Of a stretch of 64,000 nucleotides of DNA, positions 4,546-62,670 are shown piece after piece. The stretch comes from a virus (taxonomy: Duplodnaviria; Heunggongvirae; Uroviricota; Caudoviricetes). Both the position numbers and the translations under genes were made by a program. The notes below the pieces were generated by a model that saw only the letters and a program-made list of their open reading frames with translations, did no database searches and was not told where the DNA came from. The stretch lies in the IMG/VR virus record IMGVR_UViG_3300035208_005614, positions 1-64,000 of that record. The stretch is one strand, 5' to 3'. Each line of letters begins with the position of its first letter. Position 1 is the first letter of the stretch.

Positions 4546-4561
4546 ATTAATTTATTAAAAA

Positions 4562-4592
4562 AACAGCAAAGTTTTCTACTTTGCTGTTTTTT
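4562..4592. terminator. Bidirectional hairpin terminator
   Basis: CAGCAAAGT-TTTCT-ACTTTGCTG with an A-run upstream and a T-run downstream, so a U-tract follows it on either strand. It overlaps the last codons of the 4576-4893 gene. Confidence 0.55.
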
Positions 4593-5151: not shown

Positions 5152-5430
5152 TTAAATAATAGCTATTACGTCAGATTCATTTACTAACAAATAACTTTTT
5201 CCTTCCAATTGTATCATAGTACCATACTGAAAAATTATGTTATCTCCAACTTTAACTTCCATGGACTGGATAATTCCATTATCCATCATTCTTCCATTTC
5301 CAGCATAGACAACTTTACCTTTAGAAAAATCACTTTGATCTGTTGTTTTTGAAATAACTAAACCACTTGCTGTCTTCTCTATCGCTTTGTCTGATTCCAC
5401 TATAACTCTTGCTCCTAATATTTTTATCAT
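5152..5430 (-). CDS. groES: Co-chaperonin GroES (Cpn10)
   Basis: 92 aa. IKILGARVIVE..EKTASGLVIS...GKVVYAGNG...VKVGDNIIFQYG...YLLVNESDVIAII matches the Cpn10 pattern along its full length. Confidence 0.85.
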   Translation of the reverse strand: MIKILGARVIVESDKAIEKTASGLVISKTTDQSDFSKGKVVYAGNGRMMDNGIIQSMEVKVGDNIIFQYGTMIQLEGKSYLLVNESDVIAII

Positions 5431-5434: not shown

Positions 5435-6448
5435 TTATTTGTTATTTAACTGATAATCAACTGTCTTCTTTAAAGACTTTTCAAAATCTACTTTGGGTTT
5501 CCATCCAAGTTCGGCCAACTTAGACCCATCGAGCGCATAACGACAATCATGGCCAGGTCTTGAACTATGAAAATTTATAAGTTCATAATTCAACGGCTTC
5601 CCTATATATTCAGCGATAAGTTTTGCCATAGTAAGATTGTCCACTTCTTTTTCTCCCACAACATTAAATCTTTCAGGGGTCTCGAAATCAGGATACATTC
5701 TAGGAGTGACATTGTTCATTATGAACAAAATTGCATCAGCAACATTTCTTGCATGAATATAAAAACGAGAACCTGCTGTCTTTCCATCTGGATATGAATG
5801 GATGAAAATTTTCTCTCCTGAAACTGCTCTATCAATACACAATTGCACGAACTTTTCCTTATCTTGTCTTTCCCCAAAAACATTCATTGTATTCGTAATT
5901 ATAAGAGGGACGCTATAAGTTCTCCAATAAGAGATAGCAACAGCTTCCTGGGCCGCTTTTGACGCACTGTAGGGGTTGCTAGGAACGATTGGTGACCATT
6001 CTTTATGGTTTATTCCAATAGGGGCTTGTCCGTAAACTTCGTCAGTTGAAAATTGCAAAAACATTTTAGGTTTAATTTCTCTTGCAAACTCCAACATATT
6101 AAGGACCAAGTTCACATTATTTTGCACAAAAGGAACTGGATCAGTAATTGATCTATCTACATGACTATCAGAAGCAATATTCAAAATGATATCTACTTGT
6201 CCAATCGCTTTTTTAGTATCTTCCGTGAACGGAGAAACGAGATCATGGGTCAAAATTGTGACTCTATCTTTGTGATCTTGATAATTCTTGTCATCAAGAA
6301 TACGAGTAGGAATACCTTTATGTTTCCATGAAGCTATTCCAACAATCTCATGATCTGTATTTTTCAACAAATGAGATAAAACGTGTGAACCCACAAAACC
6401 TGACACTCCAGTCAAAAGTATTTTCATATTTTTAATTGTTAATCCCAC
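5435..6448 (-). CDS. NAD-dependent epimerase/dehydratase (dTDP-glucose 4,6-dehydratase-like)
   Basis: Rossmann motif LLTGVSGFVGSHV and YSASK (YxxxK) catalytic motif. The true start may be the internal MKILLTG. Confidence 0.8.
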   Translation of the reverse strand: MGLTIKNMKILLTGVSGFVGSHVLSHLLKNTDHEIVGIASWKHKGIPTRILDDKNYQDHKDRVTILTHDLVSPFTEDTKKAIGQVDIILNIASDSHVDRSITDPVPFVQNNVNLVLNMLEFAREIKPKMFLQFSTDEVYGQAPIGINHKEWSPIVPSNPYSASKAAQEAVAISYWRTYSVPLIITNTMNVFGERQDKEKFVQLCIDRAVSGEKIFIHSYPDGKTAGSRFYIHARNVADAILFIMNNVTPRMYPDFETPERFNVVGEKEVDNLTMAKLIAEYIGKPLNYELINFHSSRPGHDCRYALDGSKLAELGWKPKVDFEKSLKKTVDYQLNNK

Positions 6449-6882
6449 AAATCCATCATATATTTTCCGAGTAGTTCAAAACCCTCCTGAACCTTTTTAT
6501 GATGTTCTTTTAAAGCTTCTCCCTCCAAATATTTATATTCAGGATCATTTTCGGCATTATATGCATCAGTTAACGCATATTCTATTTTAGATAAAACCAC
6601 TAACCACGCCGCTGGATCAGAAGCAAAATCCATAGGAAGCGAATGTCCGTGTTCTTCTTCGTATCTTACAAAAGCTATAAATGGTTTATATATTTTATTT
6701 AAAATATAATAATTCAAGCTATATACATCAACATCAGCATAACCCCTTGTTAATCTCTGATAAGTATTTTTAACTTCACTAGGTATTTCTTCTATTAAGT
6801 GCCAAAGCCTATTAAAGAAACATCGAATAGGGTGTTCCTTTTGATAATTTTCTAATTCTTCCATAAAATCTTTACAATTCAT
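6439..6882 (-). CDS. Hypothetical protein
   Basis: 147-aa ORF overlapping the downstream gene start by 10 nt, which suggests translational coupling. Confidence 0.45.
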   Translation of the reverse strand: MNCKDFMEELENYQKEHPIRCFFNRLWHLIEEIPSEVKNTYQRLTRGYADVDVYSLNYYILNKIYKPFIAFVRYEEEHGHSLPMDFASDPAAWLVVLSKIEYALTDAYNAENDPEYKYLEGEALKEHHKKVQEGFELLGKYMMDLWD

Positions 6883-6896
6883 AATTTTACTATTAA

Positions 6897-7769
6897 TTAA
6901 TAATGACCGACTTTCATTTTTATTGCTTGTAATTTTAACACTTCTTTTTTAAATTGTCCAAAGTTTTTAAAATATCGATAAAGATATCTTCCCTCATTCT
7001 CAGGCAATAACTTTTTAACTCTTAATTCTTTACCTTGCTCCAATCCTCTAAGACCAACTTCTATCAAATGCTCTCTCCATTCCTTTTTAGTCTTAAATTG
7101 AGGATTGTATGTAGAAAAATTTGGTTGCATCTTAAGATAATCTCTACAATATTTAATATAACTTCCATATCTATAATGCATTATTGTTATAATACCTCCC
7201 CCATATTCCTTTTTAATATCTGTAAGAGTAGGAGTTTTACCTAATTTTTTACCTAAACTAATTATTTTGGTCATGATTTGGAGATCACAAATACCATAAG
7301 CATTTTGTCCTTCCTTTGCTTTCTTTTTACCTTTTCTATTTCCTGCTTCTCTATTCTTCTTTTTAAAACCGTAACCATTACTATTTCCTAATTGCATTTT
7401 CCCTTCTTTTTGTAATTGAGTGATAACTTCTGATTGTCTTAATCTAAGTTTCTTTGATTTCAAAGCTGTCTGAGTAAACAAACCGAATTTTGCTCTATAT
7501 TGTTCTCCTGTCATTCCGTGCTTGACTGAAAAGTGTGTAGGTAGTTGTTCAAACCATTTACCACACTCATGACATTGCAATTTACCTGTCTCCGAATCTT
7601 CTGCAAGAACTCCAACAAAACCGAATCCTGTTGAGACTGGCATAAAAGGTGGTTCCCATTTTTTAATATTAATAAAACCTGACTCGGCTTGATCGTAAGC
7701 TATCTTATTCTGTTTTTTATGTGGATATACTGGCATGTTTTTTAATAATGAGTTAAGTCGAGGGGGCAA
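6897..7769 (-). CDS. Ros/MucR-family zinc-finger transcriptional regulator-like protein with a C-terminal extension
   Basis: KLQCHECGKWFEQLPTHFSVKHGMTGEQYRAKFGL closely matches the Ros/MucR CxxC...HxxxxH finger and the following EYRxKWGL motif. About 150 extra C-terminal residues are unassigned. Confidence 0.7.
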   Translation of the reverse strand: MPPRLNSLLKNMPVYPHKKQNKIAYDQAESGFINIKKWEPPFMPVSTGFGFVGVLAEDSETGKLQCHECGKWFEQLPTHFSVKHGMTGEQYRAKFGLFTQTALKSKKLRLRQSEVITQLQKEGKMQLGNSNGYGFKKKNREAGNRKGKKKAKEGQNAYGICDLQIMTKIISLGKKLGKTPTLTDIKKEYGGGIITIMHYRYGSYIKYCRDYLKMQPNFSTYNPQFKTKKEWREHLIEVGLRGLEQGKELRVKKLLPENEGRYLYRYFKNFGQFKKEVLKLQAIKMKVGHY

Positions 7770-7927
7770 GATTCGACTTGCAGTCTTAATATGTTTCGTC
7801 TAGAACTCCACATATCCACCTGACTTAATAATTTCTCGTCCAACAAACTTGGCGCTGTTGACATGAGTGGACGTACATTTCCACGTTAGTTTAGATACTT
7901 CATGTATCGACACCCTCGACTTAACTC
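7750..7927 (-). ncRNA. Structured leader or candidate ncRNA closed by a 15-bp perfect inverted repeat
   Basis: GAGTTAAGTCGAGGG (7750-7764) and CCCTCGACTTAACTC (7913-7927) bracket about 150 nt containing nested hairpins (GCAAG/CTTGC, GTGGA/TCCAC, CGTCCA/TGGACG). It is GC-enriched relative to its surroundings. It lies downstream of the 8044-8071 promoter and upstream of the MucR-like gene. Confidence 0.4.
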
Positions 7928-8043
7928 ACTATTTTTTTTAATTAACTTAATAAATAGGATTTACGGGGGGTTTAACAAAAATGATTTCTCATTAATTCGA
8001 GTATTGTTTATTCCTCGAAGCCCCCACAATTCCTACTACTTTA

Positions 8044-8071
8044 AGTATACTCCTATCTTTTTACTTGTCAA
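8044..8071 (-). promoter_or_regulatory. Sigma-70-like promoter TTGACA-N16-TATACT (consensus copy 1)
   Basis: Minus-strand reading cTTGACAagtaaaaagataggagTATACTta. Identical to the 20828 copy. The -35 box lies inside an ACTTGnCAAGT palindrome. Confidence 0.65.
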
Positions 8072-8095
8072 GTGAAAAGTCACTTGACAGACTCT

Positions 8096-9751
8096 TTACA
8101 TCATGTCGGGTTTATCTTTTGGTATTTCTGCCATAGCTACTTCTAGGGTTAGGAACATTCCTGCTCCACTAGAAGCATTTTCTAAGGCACATCTCTCTAC
8201 TTTCAATGGATCAATAATTCCACTTTCAATAAGATTATCAACAAAAACATTATTAAAGGCATCAAAACCGCCTCCATCTTCTTGATTTTTAACCTCATTT
8301 ACCACTTCCTCTCCATCTCCTAATCCACAGTTAATAGCAATGTGTTTTAAAGGTATCTCCATTGCTTTGGCAAGAATATCAAAACCTAGAAGCTCATCTA
8401 CCGTGTATTCACCCTCATTTTTGGCCTCTAAAACCCTCGTAGACGCATGAATTAATGAATATCCACCTCCTGGAACTATACCCTCCTCCAAAGCCGCTTT
8501 TACGGCATTTATAGCGTCTTCAACTTTTAGTTTAAGATACTTAGTTTCTGTGTCTGTTGAAGCTCCAACTTTGATTCTTGCAACACCACCAGAAAGTTTA
8601 GCAATTCTTTCCTCAACTTTAAGTTTGTCGTGCTTAGATTCGAGAGTTTCCATTTCTAATTTTGCGGTAGCAATACGCTCATCAATCTTAGTTTTATCTC
8701 CTTTCCCTCCGATAATTGTTGTCTTATCTTTTGTAGAAACAACTCTTTCGGCAGAACCTAGATGATCTAATCCCACTTTATCCATTGTCATACCTAAATC
8801 TTTTGATATAAATGTTGCACCAACTGTAATTGCTATATCTTCCAAATAATCTTTCTTTCTTAAACCGAATCCTGGAGCTTTAACTCCTAGAGTGATAAAT
8901 CCATTTTGGAATCTATTTGCAAGAACTGTTTGAAGAGCGTCTCCAACGATATCTTCAGCGATGATAACTAAATCTTGTTTCCCAGAGGCTTTTAATGCTT
9001 CCATGATCAAATAAACATCTTCAGCAGAACCGAGTTTCAAATCCGTAACTAAGATCGAAACATCTTTAACCACAGATTCTCCACGAGCTGGATCGGTCAT
9101 CATATATGGAGTTATAAAACCTTTATCTAATTCTAAACCTGAAGAAATTTCACTTGTAATTCCAACAACTGGACTTTCCTCCACTGTAATTATTGCATCT
9201 TGTCCTAATTCAGATACTGTCTTTGCAACAACTTTACCTATTTCTTCTGATTTCGAAGAAATGGTTGCAACACGAGTAATCTCTTCATTTCCATTTATTG
9301 GTTTAGAGATAGTTTTTAAGTAATCAACTGCAATCTTTGAAGCTTTATCTATACCAGATTTAACTCCAATAGAATTTACTTTTGCAGGTTTAAGAGAAAT
9401 CAATCTCAAAATCTTTGTCCATAAAGAACCTTTGATTAATTTCATTCCCTCAGTAGCAATAGCCTGATACAAAAGAATTGTGGTTTTTCTTCCATCTCCA
9501 GCGATATCATTTGTTTTTTGTGCTACTTCTTTTTCTAAATTTGCTCCAACATTCTGCATAGAATCTTTTAAAACAATCTCACGTGATATAGAACCGCCAT
9601 CTCCTGTTATTGTTGGTCCACCAAAACCACGATCAAAAACTACATTACGCCCCCTTGGACCTATTGCGGGTTTTATAGAATCACCAACTGCGTCTATACC
9701 GACTTTTAATTCCTTTCTTGCTTCCTCTCCAAATAAAATTCTTTTTGCCAT
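8096..9751 (-). CDS. groEL: Chaperonin GroEL (Cpn60)
   Basis: 551 aa. AKRILFGEEAR...GPRGRNVV..GDGTTT-like region...AVKAALEEGIVPGGG... The C-terminus ends in MM. Collinear with GroEL over its full length. Confidence 0.9.
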   Translation of the reverse strand: MAKRILFGEEARKELKVGIDAVGDSIKPAIGPRGRNVVFDRGFGGPTITGDGGSISREIVLKDSMQNVGANLEKEVAQKTNDIAGDGRKTTILLYQAIATEGMKLIKGSLWTKILRLISLKPAKVNSIGVKSGIDKASKIAVDYLKTISKPINGNEEITRVATISSKSEEIGKVVAKTVSELGQDAIITVEESPVVGITSEISSGLELDKGFITPYMMTDPARGESVVKDVSILVTDLKLGSAEDVYLIMEALKASGKQDLVIIAEDIVGDALQTVLANRFQNGFITLGVKAPGFGLRKKDYLEDIAITVGATFISKDLGMTMDKVGLDHLGSAERVVSTKDKTTIIGGKGDKTKIDERIATAKLEMETLESKHDKLKVEERIAKLSGGVARIKVGASTDTETKYLKLKVEDAINAVKAALEEGIVPGGGYSLIHASTRVLEAKNEGEYTVDELLGFDILAKAMEIPLKHIAINCGLGDGEEVVNEVKNQEDGGGFDAFNNVFVDNLIESGIIDPLKVERCALENASSGAGMFLTLEVAMAEIPKDKPDMM

Positions 9752-9753: not shown

Positions 9754-11451
9754 TTATTTTTTATATTTTAATTTCAAGCTATTAATATACTCATCTAACA
9801 TACTGTCCTCTTCTTCTGTTTCTTTTCCTTCAATTAATTGGTCTATAATTTCTTGTTTTCTAGACAAAAGTTTTTTCATAAAACCATCAATTGTCCCTTT
9901 ACTTATTATTTGATAAATGTTCAAACATTCATATTCTGCCCCTGGTCGGTGAGCTCTATTCTCACCTTGATCAAGATCTGCAGGATTCCAAGGAAGATCT
10001 AAAAAAATAACATTTGAAGCCGCGGTTAACGTAATTCCAACACCCGCGCTTCTTGTTCCTCCAAAGAAAATTTTACAGTTCGGATCTGTTTGAAACTTCT
10101 TTACCATCTCTCCTCTCTCGTCAATCGGAGTACTTCCAAGTAAAAGAACAGAATTTTCTTCATATTGATCCGCTAATTCCTGTAGAGGAGCATTGAAACT
10201 TGAAAAAACAATAACTTTTTCATCAGCTTCAATGATTCCGTCTATTAATTCTTTAGCAGTTGTAATTTTGCCCATAGCATTAATCTCTCTAAGAAGATTC
10301 AACTTAACCAATCTTTCGGCCGCCATTGATTTTAAGATTTGTTTATCTGTCTTATCTTTCTTATATGTTTTAAGATATTTAACTAAGTTTTCTTCAACTA
10401 ATTCATACTGAGTTCGCTCCGCTTCTGGCAAATCGATCGGAACTTCGACTCTATTTTTGGGTGGTAACTGGGAAAGAACTTCTTCTTTTGTTCTTCTAAG
10501 AAAATATTTACTTATCTTTTCTTTTAATTCTGCAAGATTTGTAGCTCCTTTCGCTTCAAACCCCCAATAACCTTGCTTGCCATCGCAATACTTCGTTGCA
10601 TACTGATAATAATTGTTCCATTTTTTAGGATCAATCATTGAAAGAACATTAAACATTTCTATAGGTCTTGAAAGAACTGGTGTTCCTGTCAACATGATTA
10701 TGTTTGGAATATTTCTAGCCAACAATTTTATAATTTTAGAACGTTGTGCAGTTGGTGATTTGATCAAATGACTTTCGTCACAAACCAAACAATCAAACTT
10801 ATACTTCATAAATTCATTATAAAACTTCTTTAATATATCATAATTTACTATAACGCAGTTAACATCAAAAGGTATAGATTCTAAATCTGTCTTTGGCTCT
10901 ACAACAAAAGATTTTAAATCTGTCCATTTCTCTATTTCACTCTCCCAAGCAAATTTTACAGAAGCAGGGCAAACAATTAAGCTTCTCTTGTGACCTACAT
11001 GGGTAATGTAACCTAAAGTCTGTGCCGTCTTACCGACACCAGGACTATCAGCCAGCAGAGCTCTCCCCCCACTATTTACTAAAAATTCAACTCCCAACTT
11101 TTGATATTCATACAAATTTCCTTTAATCCCTTTTACAGATATTGTAGAAACTGTAGACTCTTTAATTCTTTCAGCATTTTGTGCTTTCTCTTCTTCAACA
11201 ATAACGCTTTTTTCATATGATTCTAAATCGTTTTTAACATCAACATTAAATTCTAAACCTTCAAATTTTCCTTTTAAAACAGTAATTAGAGAAGGATCAG
11301 TAAAACGCCAGACTTTATTATCCGCATCCCAACTAAATTCTTTCCAACCGAGAGTATTTTTAAGATATTGACAATATTCAACGACAATGTCGTTGTATTC
11401 GCTCTCAAATGCGTATTCGTGATATTGTGTCTTCTCTTTTAATATTCTCAT
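9754..11451 (-). CDS. SNF2-family helicase/ATPase
   Basis: Walker A LLADSPGVGKTAQ, DESH box (CDESHLIKS) and helicase-C motifs (DLPWNPADLDQGENRAHRPG). An N-terminal region of about 110 aa is unassigned. Confidence 0.8.
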   Translation of the reverse strand: MRILKEKTQYHEYAFESEYNDIVVEYCQYLKNTLGWKEFSWDADNKVWRFTDPSLITVLKGKFEGLEFNVDVKNDLESYEKSVIVEEEKAQNAERIKESTVSTISVKGIKGNLYEYQKLGVEFLVNSGGRALLADSPGVGKTAQTLGYITHVGHKRSLIVCPASVKFAWESEIEKWTDLKSFVVEPKTDLESIPFDVNCVIVNYDILKKFYNEFMKYKFDCLVCDESHLIKSPTAQRSKIIKLLARNIPNIIMLTGTPVLSRPIEMFNVLSMIDPKKWNNYYQYATKYCDGKQGYWGFEAKGATNLAELKEKISKYFLRRTKEEVLSQLPPKNRVEVPIDLPEAERTQYELVEENLVKYLKTYKKDKTDKQILKSMAAERLVKLNLLREINAMGKITTAKELIDGIIEADEKVIVFSSFNAPLQELADQYEENSVLLLGSTPIDERGEMVKKFQTDPNCKIFFGGTRSAGVGITLTAASNVIFLDLPWNPADLDQGENRAHRPGAEYECLNIYQIISKGTIDGFMKKLLSRKQEIIDQLIEGKETEEEDSMLDEYINSLKLKYKK

Positions 11452-16836: not shown

Positions 16837-16875
16837 TGTCGTATATGGGAAAATTTGATACCAAAATTGTTGAAC

Positions 16876-16945
16876 AAAAAGGTATATCCATAGCATCGAA
16901 AGATGCCGAGTCGTCAATCACTCGCCCATGTGGATATACCTTTTT
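16876..16945 (+). other. Long hairpin (15-bp stem, about 40-nt loop) followed by a T-run, in the leader of the replication initiator gene
   Basis: AAAAAGGTATATCCA (16876-16890) pairs with TGGATATACCTTTTT (16931-16945). A CATC-GAAA-GATG mini-hairpin sits in the loop. Could be an attenuator or an origin-associated stem-loop. Confidence 0.4.
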
Positions 16946-16979
16946 GCTTCGCAATTTTATTAATTAATGGGAAAAAACA

Positions 16980-20855: not shown

Positions 20856-20861
20856 TAAAAG

Positions 20862-21105
20862 ATAGTTGATTGATTTCTGGGGTTTGGCGTGTCATCTAGA
20901 TTGCTTCCGCATCGCTAAGGTGGCCCGTCAAAGGAAGTCCTCAGACGTCAATCAATTATCTGTGCGAATCGGTAGTTGTGTCCGTGATTTGAAGGTCCAG
21001 TAACTCTCTGCCACGCTTCGCGCTGGTTTAAAGTCTGGCGTAAGGAAATCGACCCGCCTTTGAATCGTGGGCTCAACTACTGAAAATTATTAGTTTAAAA
21101 GAAAA
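20862..21105 (+). ncRNA. GC-enriched structured leader or candidate ncRNA (about 245 nt)
   Basis: No ORF. Markedly GC-richer than the flanking sequence (GGGGTTTGGCGTGTC ... GCCACGCTTCGCGCTGG ... CGACCCGCC), with many short GC stems. Transcribed from the 20828 promoter ahead of the 21111 gene. Confidence 0.4.
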
Positions 21106-21110: not shown

Positions 21111-21896
21111 ATGGAAATAAAAATATTTGGAAAGAGTTTGTTTAAGTTTAGTAAAAATGAAGCATTATTTGTGGGTATTAATTCATCAATGAAAGAAAGT
21201 AAATATCTTCCTGATTTTTACGGCAGATCATTTGGTGGAGGAAGTATGAGTATTGAAAATGTCATATCTTCATCTTTTGCAACAGAATTAGCTGGAACAG
21301 GGGCAGTTACAAAATATGCAGAGACAAAAAAGGAAGAACCTGCTAAAGAAAAAGAAAAAATAACACCAAAAGGAGTTTATAATTTACAAATGTTGAATGA
21401 TAAGAGTTTTAAATTAAAAGTTGAACCGACCTACCTTGACAACTTAATTCAGTCTTTCAAGGATAAATTGTCTCTAATTAAATCTGAAGAATATGATATG
21501 AGAAATGGTACTCAAGAAATTGCAAGTATTCTTATGAGACTAGAAAATAGAAAAAAGTATAGCGATCATAAGAAAATGTTTGAGGAATTCCCATATACTA
21601 CAACAAATAAGATAAATGAATTGGTTAAGGAACACGATCATTTAAAGATAGGACAAGTTGCAGAATTTATGGCTGATATGCCAAAAGAGGCAATTGATGT
21701 TATGAAGAAATATAATAAAGAAGTTGATTTGCTTTGTAAAAAGCAAGCAGTATTCTATATTATTGCAAACAAAGAAGATTTCAAGAAAACAGAGAAGAGA
21801 AGAGATCCAATACTTTTGGCACAATCACCATTCGGTCACTTCTGGCAGATACTTGGAGCTTGGGATGAAGAAATGATGTTAATCGAAGAATTATAA
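21111..21896 (+). CDS. Hypothetical protein
   Basis: 261-aa ORF. Confidence 0.5.
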   Translation: MEIKIFGKSLFKFSKNEALFVGINSSMKESKYLPDFYGRSFGGGSMSIENVISSSFATELAGTGAVTKYAETKKEEPAKEKEKITPKGVYNLQMLNDKSFKLKVEPTYLDNLIQSFKDKLSLIKSEEYDMRNGTQEIASILMRLENRKKYSDHKKMFEEFPYTTTNKINELVKEHDHLKIGQVAEFMADMPKEAIDVMKKYNKEVDLLCKKQAVFYIIANKEDFKKTEKRRDPILLAQSPFGHFWQILGAWDEEMMLIEEL

Positions 21897-23605: not shown

Positions 23606-24119
23606 AAAAATATATGCTTTGCTTTTAGAATCAAGCAAGACTTATTTTTTGAGTGTGCAATCTGCCTATTCTTTAGAGGATGCATTTCTTTTAGCCAAGA
23701 TAGAGTTCGCAAAACTTAATCCTTTATCAAAAGGAGAAAATTCATTGGAAGGAGCAAAGATAGGTTTATTCTCGATCAAAACTGTAGAGGAACTTAACTC
23801 ACAAAATTCAGATAAAATTACTTCAGTTGATAGTGCTATTCAAACACAAGAGGAAACGTCTTCTGGAAGAACAGTAAAGATCGGTCAGGTAGACCCTGAA
23901 GACTTTCTAAAAATATTGGAAGAGGGTTTTCTTCCAAAAACAAGGAAGAGTGATATTAAAAAGATAATTCCTAAGACGCCTCCAGAAGAAGAACCTAAAA
24001 CCAAGAAGAATAAATTAATGTTAGAAATCATCAAAAGTAAAGATAAAAGAATCCTAGAAATGAATAAGGAGCTTTTTACTCCTGAAGAAATCAAATATAT
24101 TGAAAAACAGATGGAATAA
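23535..24119 (+). CDS. Hypothetical protein
   Basis: 194-aa ORF. Confidence 0.45.
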   Translation: MENNVRKLNLNKKMLNQGEKTINKKIYALLLESSKTYFLSVQSAYSLEDAFLLAKIEFAKLNPLSKGENSLEGAKIGLFSIKTVEELNSQNSDKITSVDSAIQTQEETSSGRTVKIGQVDPEDFLKILEEGFLPKTRKSDIKKIIPKTPPEEEPKTKKNKLMLEIIKSKDKRILEMNKELFTPEEIKYIEKQME

Positions 24120-24139
24120 TCTGTCAAGGTATTATTTAC

Positions 24140-24167
24140 TTGACAAGTAAAATAGAAGGAGTATACT
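24140..24167 (+). promoter_or_regulatory. Sigma-70-like promoter TTGACA-N16-TATACT (copy 5)
   Basis: cTTGACAagtaaaatagaaggagTATACTtac on the plus strand, upstream of 24232. Confidence 0.65.
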
Positions 24168-31652: not shown

Positions 31653-34600
31653 TTATTCGTTAGCTAAAATAGGTAATCCTCTCACAGTACCCCATTTTGT
31701 TTTTACTCCTTTGATCTGTTTCTCATGAGCATTAGCTGCTTTCTTTGCTTCATCCTGCGTACTGCCTAACCATAGAGATCCATCAGAGGCGTGAACATAA
31801 AAAGTTTTACCTCCCGTTGTATCATTAAACTTTCCTGACTTCATCTCATTAAGAGCGTCTTTAATCGCTTGAAGTTTTTTGTTATCAGTTGTGTTGATTA
31901 ACCCTGCTTTTAGTTTTTGATATTCACTTTGCTTAACTTTTCCATTACTAGAAGTTGCTCCTTGTGGTGCATAAGCCTGGTATTGATATGGAGCTTGTAG
32001 AACCTTAGTTAAAGAACCTTGATACCTATCAGGATCGTTTACAGCTCTATTAATAGCTGTGTTTATAATATGTTTAGTCTCAAAAGCTTGTTTGTCGGGT
32101 CTGTTACTTACTTCTCCATAAAGAATTGCAGCAGCCTCATCTATATCGCTATCCTTTACTTTAATTCCTCTTACATCATAAGTAGGTTCTTCTTTTGCTC
32201 TAAAAGTTGTAGTCAATCCTGGAAGTAATTTTTCTTTAACATTTCCCCAAGCATTAGAAATGCCAGTCCCTATGTCATCCATAAGACCCCCCTGTCCATC
32301 TGGACCTCCCTTACCTTCTTTTACTGTTTCTACTACATTCTGTGCGCTTGGAGTAATAACTTGAGAAAACGGATCAAATGATTCAGACCCTTGGTAATAA
32401 GTATTTGCTACTTTAGGAGAAGCATCTATTAATTCTCTATAAAGATAGATAAACTTCGGTTTATTATATATTTCTGCCCAAGATATATTTGCCAACTTAT
32501 CTGTTGCTGCCCAATATGAAATATTATCTAGATCAGCTTCTGTGTAATTACCTTCTTCTAAATTCTTAAGGAAGTAATTCTCAACTCTTTGTTTTGCTTT
32601 TTCTCTTATAGTTTTTCCTTCCTTCCCTGGGTTTGTTTGATATTCTAATTTAGCTTTTTTAGCAATACTAATAATATCCTTTAATTTTGAATTATTAGGA
32701 TTGTATTTATCTTTAAATGCTTGAGAAACAGCTTTTGCTCCTTCTTTGTGTATAATAACTTTTTGTTCTCCAGTAACATCATAAGACTTTAATTTTGAAG
32801 CAGCGAGTGTCTTTTCTTGTAATGGAGTTAATACAGTTCCTGCTTTTTTAAGGTTATTGTAATATTCGATAGTAGGAGCTAAACCTGTTTGTTTGATTCT
32901 TTGATTAGTTTTAGCATCTACTTTGCCTAGGAAAATATCATTAACTGTGTTTGCAGTCTCTCCAAGCGCTTTAATACCATAAGGTTTTTGTATATTTTTA
33001 AGAGCCCCAGTTAATGAAATTGGGTTAAGCGTTTCTCCACTATTAACGCTCCAAAGTTCTTTAGTAGCCCAGTTAGGATCGTCATTTGTTCTTTTAAGAA
33101 TATCGTCAGATTTCTTTGAGTCTACAGCTTCTCTTTGCGCCTGAGAAATCAATTGTCTTTCTTTTGTTCCCCATTTTGGAGTTGCAGTAAAATCCTCCTT
33201 AGAATTATAAGTAGTTCCTTTTTCTACAACATTGCCGTTAGAAAGTATTTCGTACTGACTGTATTTTTTAGGATCAGATTCTCCATAAACCTTGATAGTA
33301 ATATTATTATCTTTTACCTCATCCATAATACGTGAAGCCATGGAAATCATACTTGTTTGGTCATCTCCAACAAGTTGATTTTTTATAACTTTTTTAATAG
33401 TTTTATTTGTAGCAAGTTCAGGTGTGGATGATTTAACTTCAGTAAATGGAGTAGCTAGAGATCCTCTTTTAACGATAGCATCGACTTCGGCTTGTGACAT
33501 CCCACCTTCGCCTATTTTAGTTACGTGCATAGTATCAGCATCTTGATCTCCTTGTAGAATAATTCTTTCATTGAATGGGCTAACAATACCGTTCTCTTCT
33601 GCGAGACTTGTGTTACCTGATTTTGTACCGTCTACAACTCTAAGAACAGCAAGGTTGTTAATATCATAAGAAGGATCTCTACTTACAACTACGTAATCAC
33701 CTTCTTTAACTCCGAGACTTTTAATTTGCTCAGATCCTAAAATTATTTCGTGGTTATTGACATATCTAGTTTTTCCTGTTCCATCATAATCAGCCTTAAT
33801 AGGAGCAACCATCGTTACCATTGTACTATTTTTATAAGTAGGGTTTATTGCATTCTCCATAACTAAATTCTTTAGTATTTTGTTTATTTCAAAATGAAGA
33901 TTGTTTTTTGCAGCACTTAATTCTCCGAAAGATAATTGTTTAGCTCCTTGGAATAGATTCTCTTTTTCTAATTGAGGATATTTTTCAACTGCTTTATCAA
34001 ATACTTCTTTAAGCTCAGCATTGCTTTTTGTTTTTGCTATATCATCTATAAGAGTCTGTAGATCTTTAACGTCCTGATTAACTTTAATAAGTTTATTTTC
34101 AGATACACCAACATCAGTACTTAAGAATTTTCTTTCTCCAGAAGGAGATATTTTACTAACACTTCCTGTAGTTGATCTGTCTTTGCCATAAATATCAGAA
34201 AGAGGAAGATTAAAATCTCCGAGTTTTGGACCTATTTTAGCATTAGAATCAAAACTGATTACATCATTTTTACCAATTTCAATACCGTGAGTTTCTTTAT
34301 AACTATTTCTAATTGCCTCATCAGCTTTAATGGCCTGGCCTTTGTGATAAGATTTTTCTCCATTAAGAGTTGTATCAAGAATTATTTTAACAGATCCTTT
34401 ATGTCTATTTTTATCATAACCTAAACCTTCTATAAGTTTGTCAAAAGCATCCTCTCCAAGGATAAAAGGACCGTCTTGTGTCTTACCTCCGTGAAATGAT
34501 TCTACAGAAGCTTTTGCTTCTACCCCCTCTGGATTTTCAAACTTACTTGTATCTATTTTAAATTCTGGTGTATCACCTATAGTTTCAGCTTTAAGTGTTC

Positions 34601-37600
34601 TTAGTCTTGCTGTCTGTTCAGGACCTAGGTACTGATCATATCTATGAAAAATAAGATTAGCTCTTTTAACAAAATCTACATCTTTAATATTTTTAGGCAT
34701 TCCAAGAACATCTACCATGTAGACTCTTGTAAATTTATCTTCTGGAGTAGTCAAAGTTTCGCCTTCGTTCTGATATTTTGTAGGATTTTGATCATACTTT
34801 TCAACCATCTTAGGTTCCATCTTGACAAAGACAGTATTTTCTATTCCTTTACCTGTAATTCCAATTGGAACAAAACTTTTATTTCTCATTTCATCTGTCA
34901 AAGTATTTAAAGCATTGCTACTTTTTTTAACGTAAGATTTGTCTCCTCCTGAATAATCGTTATCCTTTCCAACATGAACCACCTCCATTGAGTTCTCTGG
35001 AAGTCCATTAGCTTTATTAAAATCTTTTGTAAGTAAATCAATCTTTCCTACATTTTGTGTTCCACCTTCTTTAAGTTGCGCTTTACCGTCAGAAATAATA
35101 ATCTCATTTCTTGCTCCTGAACTTGCAAGTGTAGTATAAAGATTCTTAAGATCTCTCAAATCTCTCTTATCTGATATTTCAAAGGCATCATTTCCACTAG
35201 CTGTTTTAATTTTTTGTGTGAAATCGTTTAAGAAAGTTGGCCATCCATCAATAATCCCTTGTCTTGTTTCTCCGTTACCAGATACTGACTTAGCAACTTC
35301 AGTTAATTTAGCGCGTGTGAAATCACTTCTCTTTTTAGGATCTGAAATTTCTTTAAGAGCAACTTCGTTGATTCCTTCCTTTCCTCTTCCTGTTTGTTTA
35401 AATTGTCCAGGATCAGCTCTTTCAGGGGCTTTTTCTATAGTGTCTAGAGCGCTTTGTACGTTAGTTTCAGCAACGGGTAGTGTATTCGCTTCATTAAGTG
35501 TTTTAGACATCTCCTGTGCCGTTTTTGGGGCTTCTGTAGGCTTAATTATAGGCAATTCAGCATCAGAAAGTGACTTAAATGATGTATCTGTAGTTTTAGG
35601 CGCCACTTTAGCTTTTTTGATCATGTCAATAAGTCTCTGACTCATTCCTTGTTTCTTCAATTGTGCAATCTCTTCTGGGGTAACTTCTGGTGTAACATTA
35701 GAAACTGGTAACGGTCCTTTTTTACTTCTTTCCATATAAGAAATCTGATCAGAAGTAAAACCTTGTTTTTTTAATGACTGTACTTCCTCTTCAGTAAATT
35801 CTTTAAGTGGAGTAGAAACTTTTTCTTGAATATTACTTATAGCACTAGACACCTGTTTTTTAATAGGTTCAAATGATTTACCTTTAAATGCAATACTTTC
35901 TGCCCAATTCTCGGGTTTAATATTGACAGCCAAGAAATATTCTCCTGACTTATTGCTTTTAGTTAGTTTAGATTGGTTAGCAGTTAGAACAGATAAACCG
36001 TTGTCTCTCATTGCTTGAGCAATTTTTGAGTTATTTAAATTTGAATCAAATTTTTGAAGAGGATTTTCTGCCTTGATTCTAGTAAGAAGAGTTTTGTTAT
36101 CTATTTTTGATAAATTTTCTGCGAATAAAATATTTGCTTCTTCTTGAGTTAATGAAGGTTTAGATTGATCTTTAAGAAGATTATCATAAAATTCTTGAGG
36201 TGTTTTTGACGCCTTTCTTATTTGTCTGATTCTATTCATCATTGATCTGAAATTCTCGTTGAAGTTGAATTTTCTTGTATCAATTCTTTCTCCTGTAGAT
36301 GCGTAACCAACTTCTCTTATTTGTCTTCCATTAGGTGTTTCTGCAATATAAAAAGTTCTGATTGTATCCTCGGGTTTAGCAATAGGAGCAGGTCTACCTT
36401 GAGATAACTCAGCGAAGTTTATAACCCTTGACACTCTTTCATTTTTTGGATCTAATACAAAGTAAAGTTGGTCAGAGTGTTGTTCTCCTTTTACTCCTTT
36501 ATCATAAGCCCCTATATTAATACTATTTTTTGCACTTATTCCTTTTGCGTTTCCAGTTATTGGAATATCTCCTGTAGGTAAGTTACTTAAATCTGCAGTT
36601 ATTTCAGGAGCAGGTTGTATATCAAGAGGAACTGAATTTAATATATCTGAATAATCTCCAGCAGGTTCTGGTCTTAAATTATTTTTAGATGGAGAAATTT
36701 TACTCTTCATTTGAGTAACTAAAGATTGAAGATCTTGAATTTCTTTTTGTTCTCTTGCACTAGGTTTGATATTTGGATCTGTTGTGACTCCATATGTCTG
36801 TGTTCCAGGATCTAATGTTCTGTTATAAAGTTGGTTTCCTGCTGTGCCGAAACCTAGAAGTTCTGCGTCTATATCTTCTTGAGAAAAATCATTACCTGAA
36901 GCGCGAGCTTCTGATATAATTTTTCCATATCTATTTATTGCTACTCTAGTTATTAACTGTGTGACATCCTCCTGAGTTTGAATTGGCATTCTAGAAATAC
37001 TTGGATCGTTTGGATTTTCTTTAAGAAATTGCTGTCTAAAGTTTTCTGCCGTAGGTATATCATATTTAGTTTGAGCGATAGGAGTTTCTCCTTTCATAAC
37101 TGCAGGAACTAATTCAGGAACAACAGAATTCATTCTTGCTGATGCCATTTTGAATGCTTGATCTGAAGCGATTGTCTTTAATCCTTGATTTACACCAAGA
37201 GTTGCACCCCCTGCTTCGAATTTACCTGGAGCCCCCATCATGTGAAGAGCCGACATTAAAGCTCCTTGTTTAAGAGCTTCTTGTATTGAATTTTCTTTAT
37301 TACCACCAAGAATAAGAGAAAGAGTAGTTGCACTTAATCCAACTCCGAGATATCCCTTGATGCTTTGTCCATATCCTGCTGTAAGTCCTCCGAATGCAGC
37401 ATCTGAGAAGAATTGACTCATGTGAGCTCCCAAATCTGCTTCTTCTTGACCAGTTAATTGCCTTCCAGTTTGTCCTATTTGTCCCCACGTTCCTAGAAGA
37501 CCCGCACCTTTAAGCATTTCTGCTGCTTGTTTTTTCCAAGCGATATTTCCTACTGTTTCTGTCCCAGCGTCTATTATTGCTTTCTTTGTTACGAGACCTG

Positions 37601-38825
37601 CAGTATCCATAGCTCCTTCAGCCATAGTAACGGCTTTTGCTGCATTAACAGCTCCTCCGAAAATTCCATCATATTCAAGAATTGGAACGGCCGCTGCTTT
37701 TGCTGCGCCTCCCATAAGACCAAGAGCTCCGAGTCCTTTCCCAACTAAACCTATACCTGTCATCATACCGACGATATTACCAGCTAAGTTAGTTACTTTT
37801 CCGAGGGTTCCAGATGATTCACTTGCTCCTGTTCCAGGGGCAATTCCTGCAGTAGCTCCTCCGACTAATCCTTTTGCAAACTCTCTAATTGGATCTGGCA
37901 ACCATCCTTCTCCGAATTGATCCATATTTTCTTTGAATGATTCTCCGAAATATTTCAATGCTCTTTTATCAAAAATTCCTACAGGTTTGCTAATTGCATC
38001 CTTCCATTGTTGTGCATATTTTTCTGCGACTTTAGTATCTAAATAACCTTTGTCATTAACTAGATTAATATCTGGAGCATCATCAACGTTTGTTTTCCAG
38101 TTTAAAGCCATCGCTTTTGCTTCGCTCTGAGTTATTTTTCCATTAGCAAGCAATGTTAAAGGAACTGCTTGTATAGCAGTTTTTTTGTCGTGAGATACAT
38201 TATCAAAAACTTCAAGATTTTTTAGTGTGTCTGCTCCACCTGCCCATAAAGGGACGATGTGGTCTACTTGGAATAAAGCAGGAGACAAATTACCGAGAAC
38301 TTGCTGTTTAACTCCTGGATTTATTTTATTATCCATGATTACACGATCAGATTTAATTAGTTTTCCAGGTTGAGTTGGATCAACAACATATTGTCCTCCC
38401 CCCATTGAGAGAGGAAGATTTCTAGCGACAACGGCAGATGATGGTGTAACCCAATTACCATTTGCATCTGGAGCAGTAAATTGACTATATCCTTCAGGTA
38501 AAGATTCTGTTGGAGTAAAAGTTGATGGAGCTACATAACCTGGAGCATAAGGAACAACTGGTGTCGGTTCTTTAAAAGCTTCTGTTATAGGAACTCCTAT
38601 AGGAAAATTATAATCAGTTGGAGCTTTTGTTGTTTTCGTTTTTCCTGTACCAAAAATAGCACCATAATCTGATACATTAAAGTGTGAATCTAGAGATCCT
38701 TTTACCACACTTGACGAAGTCTTCTGTGCGTTTTGTTGTAATTGTTTAGTTAAACCAGAAAGATTCGCAATTGATGGTTGCGAGCTAGGAGTACCATATT
38801 GCGTATTTTCAGGTAAATTAGCCAT
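31653..38825 (-). CDS. Giant tape-measure-like virion protein (2390 aa) with an N-terminal HNH-like motif and a C-terminal SleB-type cell-wall hydrolase domain
   Basis: Gly/Ala-rich hydrophobic tracts (GIGLVGKGLGALGLMGGAAKAAA...) as in tape-measure proteins. DHIVPLWAGGADTLKNLEV...H fits an HNH nuclease motif near residues 185-225. The C-terminus NRAVNDPDRYQGSLTKVLQAPYQYQAY...FYVHA resembles the Hydrolase_2 (SleB/CwlJ) domain. Confidence 0.65.
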   Translation of the reverse strand: MANLPENTQYGTPSSQPSIANLSGLTKQLQQNAQKTSSSVVKGSLDSHFNVSDYGAIFGTGKTKTTKAPTDYNFPIGVPITEAFKEPTPVVPYAPGYVAPSTFTPTESLPEGYSQFTAPDANGNWVTPSSAVVARNLPLSMGGGQYVVDPTQPGKLIKSDRVIMDNKINPGVKQQVLGNLSPALFQVDHIVPLWAGGADTLKNLEVFDNVSHDKKTAIQAVPLTLLANGKITQSEAKAMALNWKTNVDDAPDINLVNDKGYLDTKVAEKYAQQWKDAISKPVGIFDKRALKYFGESFKENMDQFGEGWLPDPIREFAKGLVGGATAGIAPGTGASESSGTLGKVTNLAGNIVGMMTGIGLVGKGLGALGLMGGAAKAAAVPILEYDGIFGGAVNAAKAVTMAEGAMDTAGLVTKKAIIDAGTETVGNIAWKKQAAEMLKGAGLLGTWGQIGQTGRQLTGQEEADLGAHMSQFFSDAAFGGLTAGYGQSIKGYLGVGLSATTLSLILGGNKENSIQEALKQGALMSALHMMGAPGKFEAGGATLGVNQGLKTIASDQAFKMASARMNSVVPELVPAVMKGETPIAQTKYDIPTAENFRQQFLKENPNDPSISRMPIQTQEDVTQLITRVAINRYGKIISEARASGNDFSQEDIDAELLGFGTAGNQLYNRTLDPGTQTYGVTTDPNIKPSAREQKEIQDLQSLVTQMKSKISPSKNNLRPEPAGDYSDILNSVPLDIQPAPEITADLSNLPTGDIPITGNAKGISAKNSINIGAYDKGVKGEQHSDQLYFVLDPKNERVSRVINFAELSQGRPAPIAKPEDTIRTFYIAETPNGRQIREVGYASTGERIDTRKFNFNENFRSMMNRIRQIRKASKTPQEFYDNLLKDQSKPSLTQEEANILFAENLSKIDNKTLLTRIKAENPLQKFDSNLNNSKIAQAMRDNGLSVLTANQSKLTKSNKSGEYFLAVNIKPENWAESIAFKGKSFEPIKKQVSSAISNIQEKVSTPLKEFTEEEVQSLKKQGFTSDQISYMERSKKGPLPVSNVTPEVTPEEIAQLKKQGMSQRLIDMIKKAKVAPKTTDTSFKSLSDAELPIIKPTEAPKTAQEMSKTLNEANTLPVAETNVQSALDTIEKAPERADPGQFKQTGRGKEGINEVALKEISDPKKRSDFTRAKLTEVAKSVSGNGETRQGIIDGWPTFLNDFTQKIKTASGNDAFEISDKRDLRDLKNLYTTLASSGARNEIIISDGKAQLKEGGTQNVGKIDLLTKDFNKANGLPENSMEVVHVGKDNDYSGGDKSYVKKSSNALNTLTDEMRNKSFVPIGITGKGIENTVFVKMEPKMVEKYDQNPTKYQNEGETLTTPEDKFTRVYMVDVLGMPKNIKDVDFVKRANLIFHRYDQYLGPEQTARLRTLKAETIGDTPEFKIDTSKFENPEGVEAKASVESFHGGKTQDGPFILGEDAFDKLIEGLGYDKNRHKGSVKIILDTTLNGEKSYHKGQAIKADEAIRNSYKETHGIEIGKNDVISFDSNAKIGPKLGDFNLPLSDIYGKDRSTTGSVSKISPSGERKFLSTDVGVSENKLIKVNQDVKDLQTLIDDIAKTKSNAELKEVFDKAVEKYPQLEKENLFQGAKQLSFGELSAAKNNLHFEINKILKNLVMENAINPTYKNSTMVTMVAPIKADYDGTGKTRYVNNHEIILGSEQIKSLGVKEGDYVVVSRDPSYDINNLAVLRVVDGTKSGNTSLAEENGIVSPFNERIILQGDQDADTMHVTKIGEGGMSQAEVDAIVKRGSLATPFTEVKSSTPELATNKTIKKVIKNQLVGDDQTSMISMASRIMDEVKDNNITIKVYGESDPKKYSQYEILSNGNVVEKGTTYNSKEDFTATPKWGTKERQLISQAQREAVDSKKSDDILKRTNDDPNWATKELWSVNSGETLNPISLTGALKNIQKPYGIKALGETANTVNDIFLGKVDAKTNQRIKQTGLAPTIEYYNNLKKAGTVLTPLQEKTLAASKLKSYDVTGEQKVIIHKEGAKAVSQAFKDKYNPNNSKLKDIISIAKKAKLEYQTNPGKEGKTIREKAKQRVENYFLKNLEEGNYTEADLDNISYWAATDKLANISWAEIYNKPKFIYLYRELIDASPKVANTYYQGSESFDPFSQVITPSAQNVVETVKEGKGGPDGQGGLMDDIGTGISNAWGNVKEKLLPGLTTTFRAKEEPTYDVRGIKVKDSDIDEAAAILYGEVSNRPDKQAFETKHIINTAINRAVNDPDRYQGSLTKVLQAPYQYQAYAPQGATSSNGKVKQSEYQKLKAGLINTTDNKKLQAIKDALNEMKSGKFNDTTGGKTFYVHASDGSLWLGSTQDEAKKAANAHEKQIKGVKTKWGTVRGLPILANE

Positions 38826-61584: not shown

Positions 61585-61656
61585 CATAGTACTAGCTCTT
61601 CGAGTAGGATTCGGACCTACGATCTATCGCTTAACAGGCGATGGCTTTACCACTAA
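61585..61656 (-). tRNA. tRNA-Asn (anticodon GUU)
   Basis: Hand-folded cloverleaf: acceptor TCTTCGA/TCGAAGA, D GCTT/AAGC, anticodon stem ATCGC/GCGAT with loop CUGUUAA, T-arm GTAGG-TCCGAAT-CCTAC. Coordinates within about 2 nt. Confidence 0.75.
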
Positions 61657-61661
61657 GCTAT

Positions 61662-61732
61662 CGAAGAATATGCTGGGGAAGATGGAATCGAACCACCATT
61701 AATCGCTTCAGAGGCGATCTTACTACCTTTAT
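61662..61732 (-). tRNA. tRNA-Gln (anticodon CUG)
   Basis: Acceptor TGGGGAA/TTCCCCA, anticodon stem ATCGC/GCGAT with loop CUCUGAA, T-arm GGTGG-TTCGATT-CCATC. Confidence 0.7.
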
Positions 61733-61750
61733 AAGATTCCCCAATTTGTA

Positions 61751-61822
61751 CTTTCTAACTGCTGGGGATCTTGGGTTCGAACCAAGCTACACGGCTTCAA
61801 GGGCCGTTGAACTACCAACTAT
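61751..61822 (-). tRNA. tRNA-Gln (anticodon UUG)
   Basis: Acceptor TGGGGAT/ATCCCCA, D GAAT/GTTC, anticodon stem ACGGC/GCCGT with loop CCUUGAA, T-arm CTTGG-TTCGAAC-CCAAG. Confidence 0.8.
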
Positions 61823-61835
61823 TCTAATCCCCAAT

Positions 61836-62198
61836 TTACCATTTTTTACCTTTTTTTCTAGCAGTTAATCTCCACTTTTTTCTAACCTCATTATAAGCAT
61901 TCATACAAAGTCTACATCTACATTTATGATGTCTATACATTGAATACATTCCATGTTTTGATTCCCCGTTATCAATCTTATTCTTTTCTTTGTGACATAT
62001 ATGACAAAGTAATTGACACTTAGAAACTTCTAATAAAACTTTTTGTATAGAATAAGACCATTTTTCTGTTATGGTAAATTTTTTTGTTTTAGGATCAATA
62101 TGATCAAACTCTAATCCTTCTTTACTTCCACAAACAACACATTTTCCTCCTAATAATTCTATTAATAAACTAATTCTTTTTTTATAATGTCTTATCAT
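61836..62198 (-). CDS. HNH endonuclease embedded in the tRNA array
   Basis: CVVCGSKEGLEFDHIDPKTKKF...LLCHICHKEKN is a canonical HNH pattern (C..C...DHI.P.....N..LC..CH..K). Confidence 0.6.
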   Translation of the reverse strand: MIRHYKKRISLLIELLGGKCVVCGSKEGLEFDHIDPKTKKFTITEKWSYSIQKVLLEVSKCQLLCHICHKEKNKIDNGESKHGMYSMYRHHKCRCRLCMNAYNEVRKKWRLTARKKGKKW

Positions 62199-62313
62199 TA
62201 GTATATCCTACCATAATACTTTAAAATGTCCTACCCTGCGGGCCGAGAAGGACTTGCACCCTCATTTTCCGCTTTGGAGACGGAAGTGTTTCTATTACAC
62301 TATCAACCCAATG

Positions 62314-62386
62314 GGTAACTATTGGGAATTGAACCCAACCTAAGAGTTTCACAAACTCCTGTGCGAACCGATACACTACAGTCACC
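62314..62386 (-). tRNA. tRNA-His (anticodon GUG) with an encoded G-1
   Basis: Extra 5' G opposite the C73 discriminator, acceptor GTGACTG/TAGTTAC (two G-U pairs), anticodon loop UUGUGAA, T-arm TTGGG-TTCAATT-CCCAA. Confidence 0.75.
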
Positions 62387-62389
62387 ATG

Positions 62390-62473
62390 TGCGTAAAAGA
62401 GGACTCGAACCTCTAACTCCTTTCGAAGACAACATTTTAAGTGTTGCGCGTATACCACTTCCGCCATTCACGC
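62390..62473 (-). tRNA. tRNA-Leu (anticodon UAA), class II
   Basis: Acceptor GCGTGAA/TTTACGC, anticodon stem CAACA/TGTTG with loop CUUAAAA, long variable arm of about 16 nt, T-arm AGAGG-TTCGAGT-CCTCT. Confidence 0.8.
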
Positions 62474-62477
62474 ATTG

Positions 62478-62551: not shown

Positions 62552-62555
62552 CCTG

Positions 62556-62626: not shown

Positions 62627-62670
62627 TTAATGTGACCGTCATCGACAAGAAACCGACACTACGTCACATG

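Follow-up and report, generated by a model that had tools for sequence, protein, structure and literature searches.

The minus strand of this phage-like sequence carries, directly after groEL and at the head of the chaperonin (groES) operon, a conserved structured leader RNA that has not previously been catalogued and that belongs to a rare group of uncultivated phages. The RNA is built from two domains, a three-way-junction core of about 86 nt (domain 1, D1; 7953–8038, minus strand) and a variable domain (domain 2, D2; 7744–7933, minus strand), the second of which contains the long inverted repeat that was originally flagged at this locus. On balance, we favour a reading in which the flagged repeat is the closing helix of an accessory module within a two-domain, cis-acting leader, where D1 would bind a factor and D2 would serve in processing or stability. 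The initial annotation had read the region as a structured RNA of the minus strand, and this is borne out by a recurrent fold with compensatory changes and by G.U pairs and folding energies that favour the gene strand.

The window, meaning the whole 64,000-nt stretch of DNA that was analysed, appears phage-like from its PHROG matches (a primase/helicase and an SbcC-like nuclease), an array of 15 tRNAs at 61.6–63.8 kb (ARAGORN) and its relatives in IMG/VR. The neighbourhood of the leader lies entirely on the minus strand, with genes for an SNF2 helicase (9754–11451) and GroEL (Cpn60; 8096–9751) followed by a 359-nt gap that holds the element. Next come a MucR-like protein of 279 aa with a Ros/MucR zinc finger (6897–7736; Pfam PF05443, E = 1.2e-9), which is the first gene after the RNA, a protein without a Pfam match that is 147 aa long in the window (DUF147; 6439–6882), an epimerase (5435–6448) and GroES (5152–5430), and same-strand genes continue to about 2600. 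The lineage is barely sampled: GroEL homologues are 58–69% identical and lie on metagenomic contigs of 5–112 kb, the GenBank phage collection contained no match by DNA or by the DUF147 protein, and searches of IMG/VR with the MucR-like protein and GroEL returned distant loci only, or none. Fifteen distinct members of the group, all on uncultivated phage-like contigs, were collected from GroEL neighbourhoods and from pattern and protein scans. Among 26 matches from a pattern scan of metagenomes, two were new members (L028 and L039) and the others duplicates or chance matches; a second pattern scan, of IMG/VR, gave 80 loci, of which the covariance model accepted two that were already known. The exact arm of the inverted repeat had five matches in IMG/VR, each a single unpaired copy of the 15-mer, and the two of these loci that were inspected fully (L004 and L005) are unrelated high-GC sequence. 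One relative, L008, is 98.4% identical to the window, with 52 of 52 differences falling outside the groEL-to-mucR stretch; it is uninformative on selection because no differences occur from groEL to the MucR-like gene.

The leader is predicted to be transcribed from a minus-strand promoter at 8044–8071, in which TTGACA and TATACT are separated by 16 nt (11 of 12 consensus positions; extended motif tcACTTGACAAGTA...GGAGTATACTTA), with a start near 8037; where the transcript starts and ends, and whether it is processed, are predictions from sequence. The promoter named at 8044 in the initial annotation is thus confirmed as a consensus match, and both promoter and fold recur in 15 distinct relatives, where the motif CTTGACAAGT is invariant (15 of 15) and the -10 box reads TATA(C/A)T, the invariant promoter pattern of the leader unit being ACTTGACAAGTA...TATACT. 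Five near-identical promoters occur in the window, this one among them, and a second large structured RNA (twin hairpins, 20860–21082) follows an identical promoter there. Just 3' of the groEL stop, a perfect 10-bp inverted repeat (TGTCAAGTGA/TCACTTGACA; 8066–8089) includes the -35 hexamer in its promoter-proximal arm and could be either a groEL 3' hairpin or an operator; similar GTCAAG...CTTGAC-like repeats are found in L011, L014, L028 and L047 and at the promoter at 24140 of the window.

Comparison of the member sequences demonstrates that D1 is the invariant core of the leader RNA and that its fold is under selection. D1 begins about 1–3 nt after the predicted transcription start in the window and scores 82 bits against covariance model R1. 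In the computed fold, it is closed by helix P1 (8036–8031 and 8029–8021 with 7969–7961 and 7959–7954; 13–15 bp), which encloses helix P2 (8019–8014 with 8001–7996) and its conserved loop GAAUAAACAAUA (8013–8002; pattern G-AAU-N-AAUA-C), helix P3 (7992–7989 with 7984–7981), which carries a GAAA loop in the window and a GNRA loop in many members, and the junction UUUUGUUAAAC (7980–7970), near-invariant among members as YUGUUAAAC. A long-range pairing of six G with five C had been reported between the element and the promoter; the pairing is real (minus-strand G 8025–8021 with C 7969–7965), but it forms part of P1 within the conserved D1 and is not a separate feature. Compensatory double changes affect 18 of the 21 D1 pairs (RNAalifold, 15-sequence alignment), and 89.8% of D1 cells are paired versus 69.2% in column shuffles, with 0 of 500 shuffles reaching the observed value; when partners are slid by 1–3 columns, pairing falls to 37–50%. 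The initial annotation had pointed to relatives and compensatory changes as the test of the structure, and the recurrence of this fold in 15 relatives with covarying pairs answers it in favour of an RNA. Within the D1 pairs, G.U/U.G combinations outnumber A.C/C.A by 25 to 8. Conservation averages 0.82 in the unpaired core columns versus 0.60 in the paired ones, the pattern expected of an RNA whose loops and junction form a specific site. R1 finds exactly one D1 copy per related locus and no match in about 1.1 Mb of other, unrelated loci, and the copy at 7953–8038 is its sole match in the window (next-best score 16.8 bits). Pairing of the P2 loop (AAUAA) with the junction (UUGUU) as a pseudoknot was considered and gained no support, because the nucleotides do not covary and L050 and L053 are without the loop motif.

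The flagged repeat itself is real and non-random. The window contains GAGTTAAGTCGAGGG at 7750–7764 and its exact complement at 7913–7927, so that the perfect 15-bp repeat originally described is present; the exact repeat in fact spans 16 nt (7749–7764 with 7913–7928), and one G.U pair on the minus strand extends the helix to 21 bp (7744–7764 with 7913–7933), the closing helix of D2. Its arms are unique within the window, where exact 15-mer inverted repeats within 300 nt occur at three loci, the expectation from Markov-1 simulations being 0.17 per 64 kb. The helix encloses 148 nt that are predicted to form five hairpins, consistent with the earlier count of at least three internal stems. Folding of the region, also suggested in the initial annotation, gave a minus-strand minimum free energy of -68.1 kcal/mol, far beyond that of shuffled sequences (-39 +/- 4; z -7.1), and a plus-strand value of -58.6 kcal/mol (z -5.8). 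The segment had also been called GC-enriched, which holds only modestly (GC about 0.41 versus 0.25–0.33 in the flanks). One internal hairpin, GUGGA/UCCAC (7884–7880 with 7871–7867), is followed by the motif UCAUGUCAACAG, which is common to L011, L017 and L039. A 40-aa open reading frame within D2 (7742–7864, minus strand) was rejected as a gene; it is not conserved, because its AUG is missing in L011 and L039.

Across relatives, the sequence comparisons establish D2 as an optional, exchangeable accessory module whose constant property is a long closing helix. This helix is 18–36 bp long, with 1–6 G.U pairs on the gene strand, in 11 of 12 D2 modules (the minimum-free-energy fold of L028 has none), and in 11 of 12 the fold of the gene strand is more stable than that of its complement. 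Compensatory changes of the kind sought in the flagged stem are apparent when the closing helices of the window and L011 are compared in ungapped register: the outer 10 bp are identical (AAUAGUGAGU / ACUCAUUAUU), and of the inner 11 positions, eight differ by a double, compensatory change, one by a single change and one by a broken pair. Other features of D2 vary widely. The interior differs among members in type and size (0–400 nt), with total lengths of about 75 nt in L009 and L012, about 190 nt in the window, L011 and L017, and about 290 nt in L014, while L039 has two modules in tandem. An internal hairpin followed by UCA(U/A)G-CAACAG recurs in the window, L011, L017 and the second module of L039. 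For L050 and L053, near-identical D1 sequences are joined to different D2 types. The flagged 150-nt element is therefore not the core but the variable and dispensable domain: it is missing in L046, L047, L016 and L048, of which L016 and L048 have extra hairpins 5' of D1 in its place, and D2 cannot be essential because these four members do without it.

In the members, the leader unit runs in the order promoter, D1 of about 86 nt, in most cases D2, an A/U-rich stretch (UUAAUUAAAA-like) and an ATG. In the fold of the full leader, the two domains form independently, and both the A/U-rich linker between them (UUAUUAAGUUAAUUAAAAAAAA; 7934–7952, minus strand) and the start region are unpaired; the linker resembles the A/U-rich leader that precedes the start codon in D2-less members (compared with L046 and L016). 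The next gene is preceded by the A-rich leader UUAAAAAAC and starts with an ATG at 7736–7734 (together 7734–7743, minus strand), a stretch that is unpaired and without a Shine–Dalgarno sequence. A/U-rich leaders are general in the window, where an SD-like motif precedes 2 of 33 long open reading frames, and the AUG region is unpaired in the folds of both the window and the D2-less members. No terminator-like site was found in the window between the RNA and the following gene, D2 is without the U-run that would follow the helix in an intrinsic terminator on the minus strand, and a simple scan of the spaces between the operon's genes turned up no convincing terminators on the minus strand. On the plus strand, a T8 run (7934–7941) follows the helix, but the 'loop' would be 148 nt long and relatives do not conserve the corresponding A-run. 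Members differ in how far D1 lies from the next start, from about 28 to 340 nt, a roughly 12-fold range.

The unit lies directly after groEL in all members except L047, where another gene precedes it, and what follows it is far less constant. For example, the RNA is followed by a small open reading frame in L009, L012, L028 and L050, by DUF147 in L011, L016, L017, L046 and L048, by GroES in L013 and by tRNA-Asn in L039. The MucR-like gene occupies this position only in the window and L008 and in L014 and L015, so the description of the element as the leader of the MucR-like gene captured an incidental arrangement. Gene order across the loci identifies DUF147 (147–170 aa) and GroES as the conserved downstream partners, and the MucR-like gene and the epimerase as insertions at a variable spot, which is occupied by homing-endonuclease-like NUMOD3 genes in L011 and L017. 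DUF147 was considered as a possible RNA-binding partner; its structural model is confident (pLDDT 87.5) and all-helical and has no fold match below E = 1, and the family has about 100 members among 5.8 billion clusters.

Known RNA families do not account for the leader. The Rfam search proposed in the initial annotation identified no family matching the element: at the gathering score, Rfam 15 found only tRNAs in the window and seven relatives, and at E <= 10 the region 7600–8200 gave chance matches only (VrrA at 22 bits, threshold 50) and L014 none. ARAGORN detected no tRNA or tmRNA near 7700–8100, and a tmRNA-like 5' end on the plus strand was ruled out by ARAGORN and Rfam together. The window lacks a CIRCE operator (TTAGCACTC-N9-GAGTGCTAA): its best site is mismatched at 6 of 18 positions, and none lies near the element. 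No reverse-transcriptase domain of the kind that would mark a retron occurs in the genes flanking the relatives' copies, the neighbours in the window being Cpn60 and Ros/MucR proteins, and a literature search found no description of a D1/D2 leader RNA.

Several readings of this RNA were weighed, of which the main rival, and one that deserves serious if secondary consideration, is a free-standing non-coding RNA: D1, alone or together with D2, would be cut from the transcript and act in trans as a decoy, a scaffold or a multimeric assembly. The inconstancy of the following gene (MucR-like, small open reading frames, DUF147, GroES or a tRNA) agrees with this, as do long terminal helices that resemble the processing stalks of stable RNAs, the GNRA loops in P3 of many members, the ornate modularity of D2, and the structured RNA at 20860–21082 behind an identical promoter. 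In L039, RNase P would release the RNA, since tRNA-Asn directly adjoins it. However, the window has no terminator after the RNA, an open reading frame or tRNA follows after a short A/U stretch in every member inspected, no complementary target was identified, and known families of trans-acting RNAs give no match. It is rather unlikely that D1 is a riboswitch aptamer sensing a small molecule on behalf of a DUF147/GroES operon, with D2 as a peripheral expansion. The 5' leader position and an aptamer-like D1, in which P1 closes a three-way junction, the stems covary and the nucleotides of junction and loops are highly conserved, are what such a reading calls for, but an expression platform is absent: the leader has neither a terminator nor a helix sequestering the start region. 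Moreover, the spacing from D1 to the start codon differs about 12-fold among members and can take in unrelated modules or a tRNA, no metabolic theme unites the downstream genes, and no Rfam riboswitch matches, even at E <= 10.

Two further readings place the flagged repeat at the level of DNA. We judge it unlikely that D2 is a selfish, MITE-like inverted-repeat insertion, tolerated but functionless, in an A/U-rich leader. Its presence, absence or type differs at the same site among relatives, its terminal inverted repeats are 21 nt long, its ends are conserved between the window and L011 (AAUAGUGAG.../...CUCAUUAUU, with AAUAGUG also in L050), a 9-nt direct repeat (ATTAAAAAA) flanks it in the window, and the window leader with D2 removed resembles the D2-less leader of L046. 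Against this, D2 has one copy in the 64-kb window and likewise in the loci compared, BLAST searches with six D2 modules return only themselves, no transposase was identified, and the flanking ATTAAAAAA is a low-complexity A-rich string of a type common before start codons and has no counterpart in L011; in addition, the pairing of D2 is maintained by compensatory changes and by G.U pairs that exist on the sense strand only, which argues for selection on RNA rather than on terminal repeats recognised as DNA. The initial annotation had held that the element could equally be a DNA site, for example a recombination or packaging site, and a cruciform or replication site may be added to these, yet such an explanation is now highly improbable. 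It would draw on the exact 16-bp inverted repeat, unusual for the window, and on the SbcC-like palindrome nuclease that the phage encodes. The wobble pairs (25 G.U versus 8 A.C) and folding energies (the sense strand better in 11 of 12 D2 modules) are strand-asymmetric, however, and this G.U excess and gene-strand stability indicate that selection acts on the gene strand as RNA and not on a palindrome in the DNA. Iterons or repeated boxes are absent, the neighbours are a chaperonin and a zinc-finger protein with no integrase, terminase or initiator, and there are relatives in which the locus is otherwise retained but the element is not present.

Under the favoured reading of a two-domain, cis-acting leader, minus-strand transcription would start at the conserved sigma-70-type promoter that immediately follows groEL, and the two-domain RNA would form the 5' end of the transcript. 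D1 may bind a specific factor, whether a protein, RNA polymerase or a small ligand, and would act on the whole transcript through processive antitermination, stability or processing, with no hiding of the ribosome-binding site; candidate routes are binding of a protein or polymerase in the manner of nut or put, stabilisation of the 5' end, or release as a separate RNA. The unpaired start region, the lack of a terminator, the variable distance between D1 and the start and the scarcity of Shine–Dalgarno sequences argue against a riboswitch or thermometer that occludes the start site, and they agree with a core whose action is on the entire transcript. A promoter-proximal folded RNA at the head of a long operon is also the layout found in processive antitermination. 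D2 may be a double-stranded hairpin of the kind that RNase III takes as a substrate, serving in processing or stability, and a helix of about 20 bp or more (21 bp in the window) does separate D1 from the start codon, the geometry of such a hairpin. By analogy with the lambda N leader and T7 R0.3, it could separate or insulate D1 from the downstream mRNA. We know of no means of predicting RNase III recognition from sequence alone. The tRNA that follows the RNA in L039 fits a released, stand-alone RNA equally well.

The lambda N leader consists of NUTL and an RNase III hairpin, and T7 R0.3 is an RNase III cleavage site. Here, as in those leaders, the order is a strong early promoter of host type, a small conserved element for RNA recognition, a long irregular hairpin of about two turns and the first gene, and by analogy the element would work on the transcript without occluding the start site. 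In contrast, sequence and Rfam similarity are lacking, D1 has a closed three-way junction in place of boxA/boxB, the multi-branched interiors of D2 vary between 0 and 400 nt, and both cleavage and an antiterminator are putative here. HK022 put and EAR are cis-acting processive-antitermination RNAs, and D1 resembles them as a promoter-proximal folded RNA of about 70–90 nt with two hairpins that needs no expression platform and is indifferent to the following gene; unlike them, its two hairpins are enclosed by the 13–15-bp P1, no downstream terminators were found here, and polymerase binding is hypothetical for D1. Riboswitches built on three-way junctions (purine, TPP) share the P1-closed junction, covarying stems, conserved junction nucleotides and 5' leader position, whereas this leader RNA is without an expression platform, an Rfam match or an association with metabolic genes. 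Similarly, Correia/NEMIS and ERIC elements are transcribed intergenic inverted-repeat modules of 100–200 bp that form RNA hairpins, some of them RNase III substrates, but they are multi-copy, whereas D2 is single-copy with its pairing kept by compensatory change. The CIRCE/HrcA system of bacterial groESL operons also places an inverted repeat between promoter and chaperonin gene, although its consensus is absent here and its size and architecture are unrelated. ROOL and GOLLD RNAs are likewise phage-borne and modular, with many hairpins and sometimes adjoining tRNA genes, but the D1/D2 RNA is much smaller, always heads an mRNA and has no Rfam match.

The covariation support is strong for an alignment of only 15 sequences, and with no Rfam match the leader is a candidate new RNA family. 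The immediate impact is moderate, since its function is unproven and the lineage uncultivated. The combination of an invariant junction core with interchangeable modules and no expression platform points to action on the transcript itself. As a tentative extension, D1 might represent a new class of factor-binding regulatory RNA dedicated to the chaperonin operon of these phages, either put/nut-like or a ligand sensor without a classical platform; the swappable long-stemmed modules, D2 and the twin hairpins at 20860–21082 among them, would in that case be phage-specific processing signals that free stable structured RNAs from early transcripts. If D1 does bind a ligand or polymerase, a short list would gain a new class, and the leader offers a testable handle on the timing of chaperonin expression in these phages.

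Promoters of the window are of the classic sigma-70 type, and five of them are near-identical extended copies of the form tacTTGACAagta-N-aggagTATACTta, located at 8071, 11727 and 16395 on the minus strand and at 20828 and 24140 on the plus strand, each with a spacer of 16 nt. The copy at 8071, which is the promoter of the leader RNA that follows groEL, and the copy at 20828 are identical in spacer sequence too. A palindrome, ACTTG(A/T)CAAGT, encloses the -35 element of these promoters, which look like a phage-specific and perhaps early class. The -35 box forms the downstream arm of an inverted repeat, TGTCAAG...CTTGACA, that was found at 8066-8089, at approximately 24118-24145 upstream of the 24140 promoter, and in four of the related uncultivated phage-like contigs compared with the window (L011, L014, L028 and L047). 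This repeat could serve as an operator or form the upstream gene's 3' hairpin. Most relatives with listed upstream genes carry a small MerR-like gene before the SNF2 gene, while none was seen in L011 and L051.

The 20828 promoter is followed by a second large structured leader (20860-21082, plus strand), located 5' of a 261-aa ORF (21111-21896) and consisting of two long imperfect hairpins with the closing pairs GAUAGUUGAUUGAU/GUCAAUCAAUUAUC and GGUAGUUG/CUCAACUAC. Its folding energy is -96.4 kcal/mol (z -7.7) and its GC content approximately 50%, versus 33% for the genome; an Rfam search with this leader returned no match. Exact inverted repeats of at least 15 nt within 300 nt occur three times in the window, versus 0.17 expected, and include the repeat that closes D2, the optional long-stemmed module of the leader RNA after groEL. 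Of the other two (4558-4592 and 16875-16946), one is located between two minus-strand ORFs, and a promoter-like site (16809, plus strand) lies close to the other. A Shine-Dalgarno-like motif accompanies only 2 of the 33 long ORFs, and A/U-rich TTAATTAAAA-like strings precede the start codons. The window also encodes two giant ORFs on the minus strand (31653-38825, 2390 aa; 52468-60510, 2680 aa) and ends with an array of 15 clustered tRNA genes (61595-63783, minus strand).

Large D2 modules were identified in L014 (5795-6052) and L039 (approximately 3750-3560, minus strand). The two have in common the motif GACUAUACGAGU and an inner helix, CUGRGR...YCYCAG-UAAU, that is also found in L009, L012, L013, L017 and L053, which suggests that D2 modules fall into at least two classes, this one and an AAUAGUG class to which the window, L011, L050 and L039b belong.

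Comparison with L009, L011, L012, L016 and L017 identifies the stretch between the leader RNA and groES (5435-7736) as an insertion hot spot. The window carries the MucR-like gene and an epimerase gene here, both missing from most relatives; L011 and L017 have NUMOD3 (homing-endonuclease-like) ORFs in this region, and other relatives have small unrelated ORFs. The near-identical contig L008 differs from the window at 50 positions clustered at the DUF147/epimerase junction (6239-6799; divergence 5.5-8.6%) and is otherwise identical, with no differences across groEL, the RNA and mucR, a pattern that suggests a mosaic formed by recombination between closely related strains.

For the small protein DUF147 itself (6439-6882, minus strand), the structural model (pLDDT 87.5) is all-helical; the protein matched no family in Pfam or PHROG and no fold in the PDB, and has approximately 100 homologues in 5.8 billion clusters. 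It lies between groEL and groES in all loci examined except L013 and the short contig L047, and may be a chaperonin accessory.
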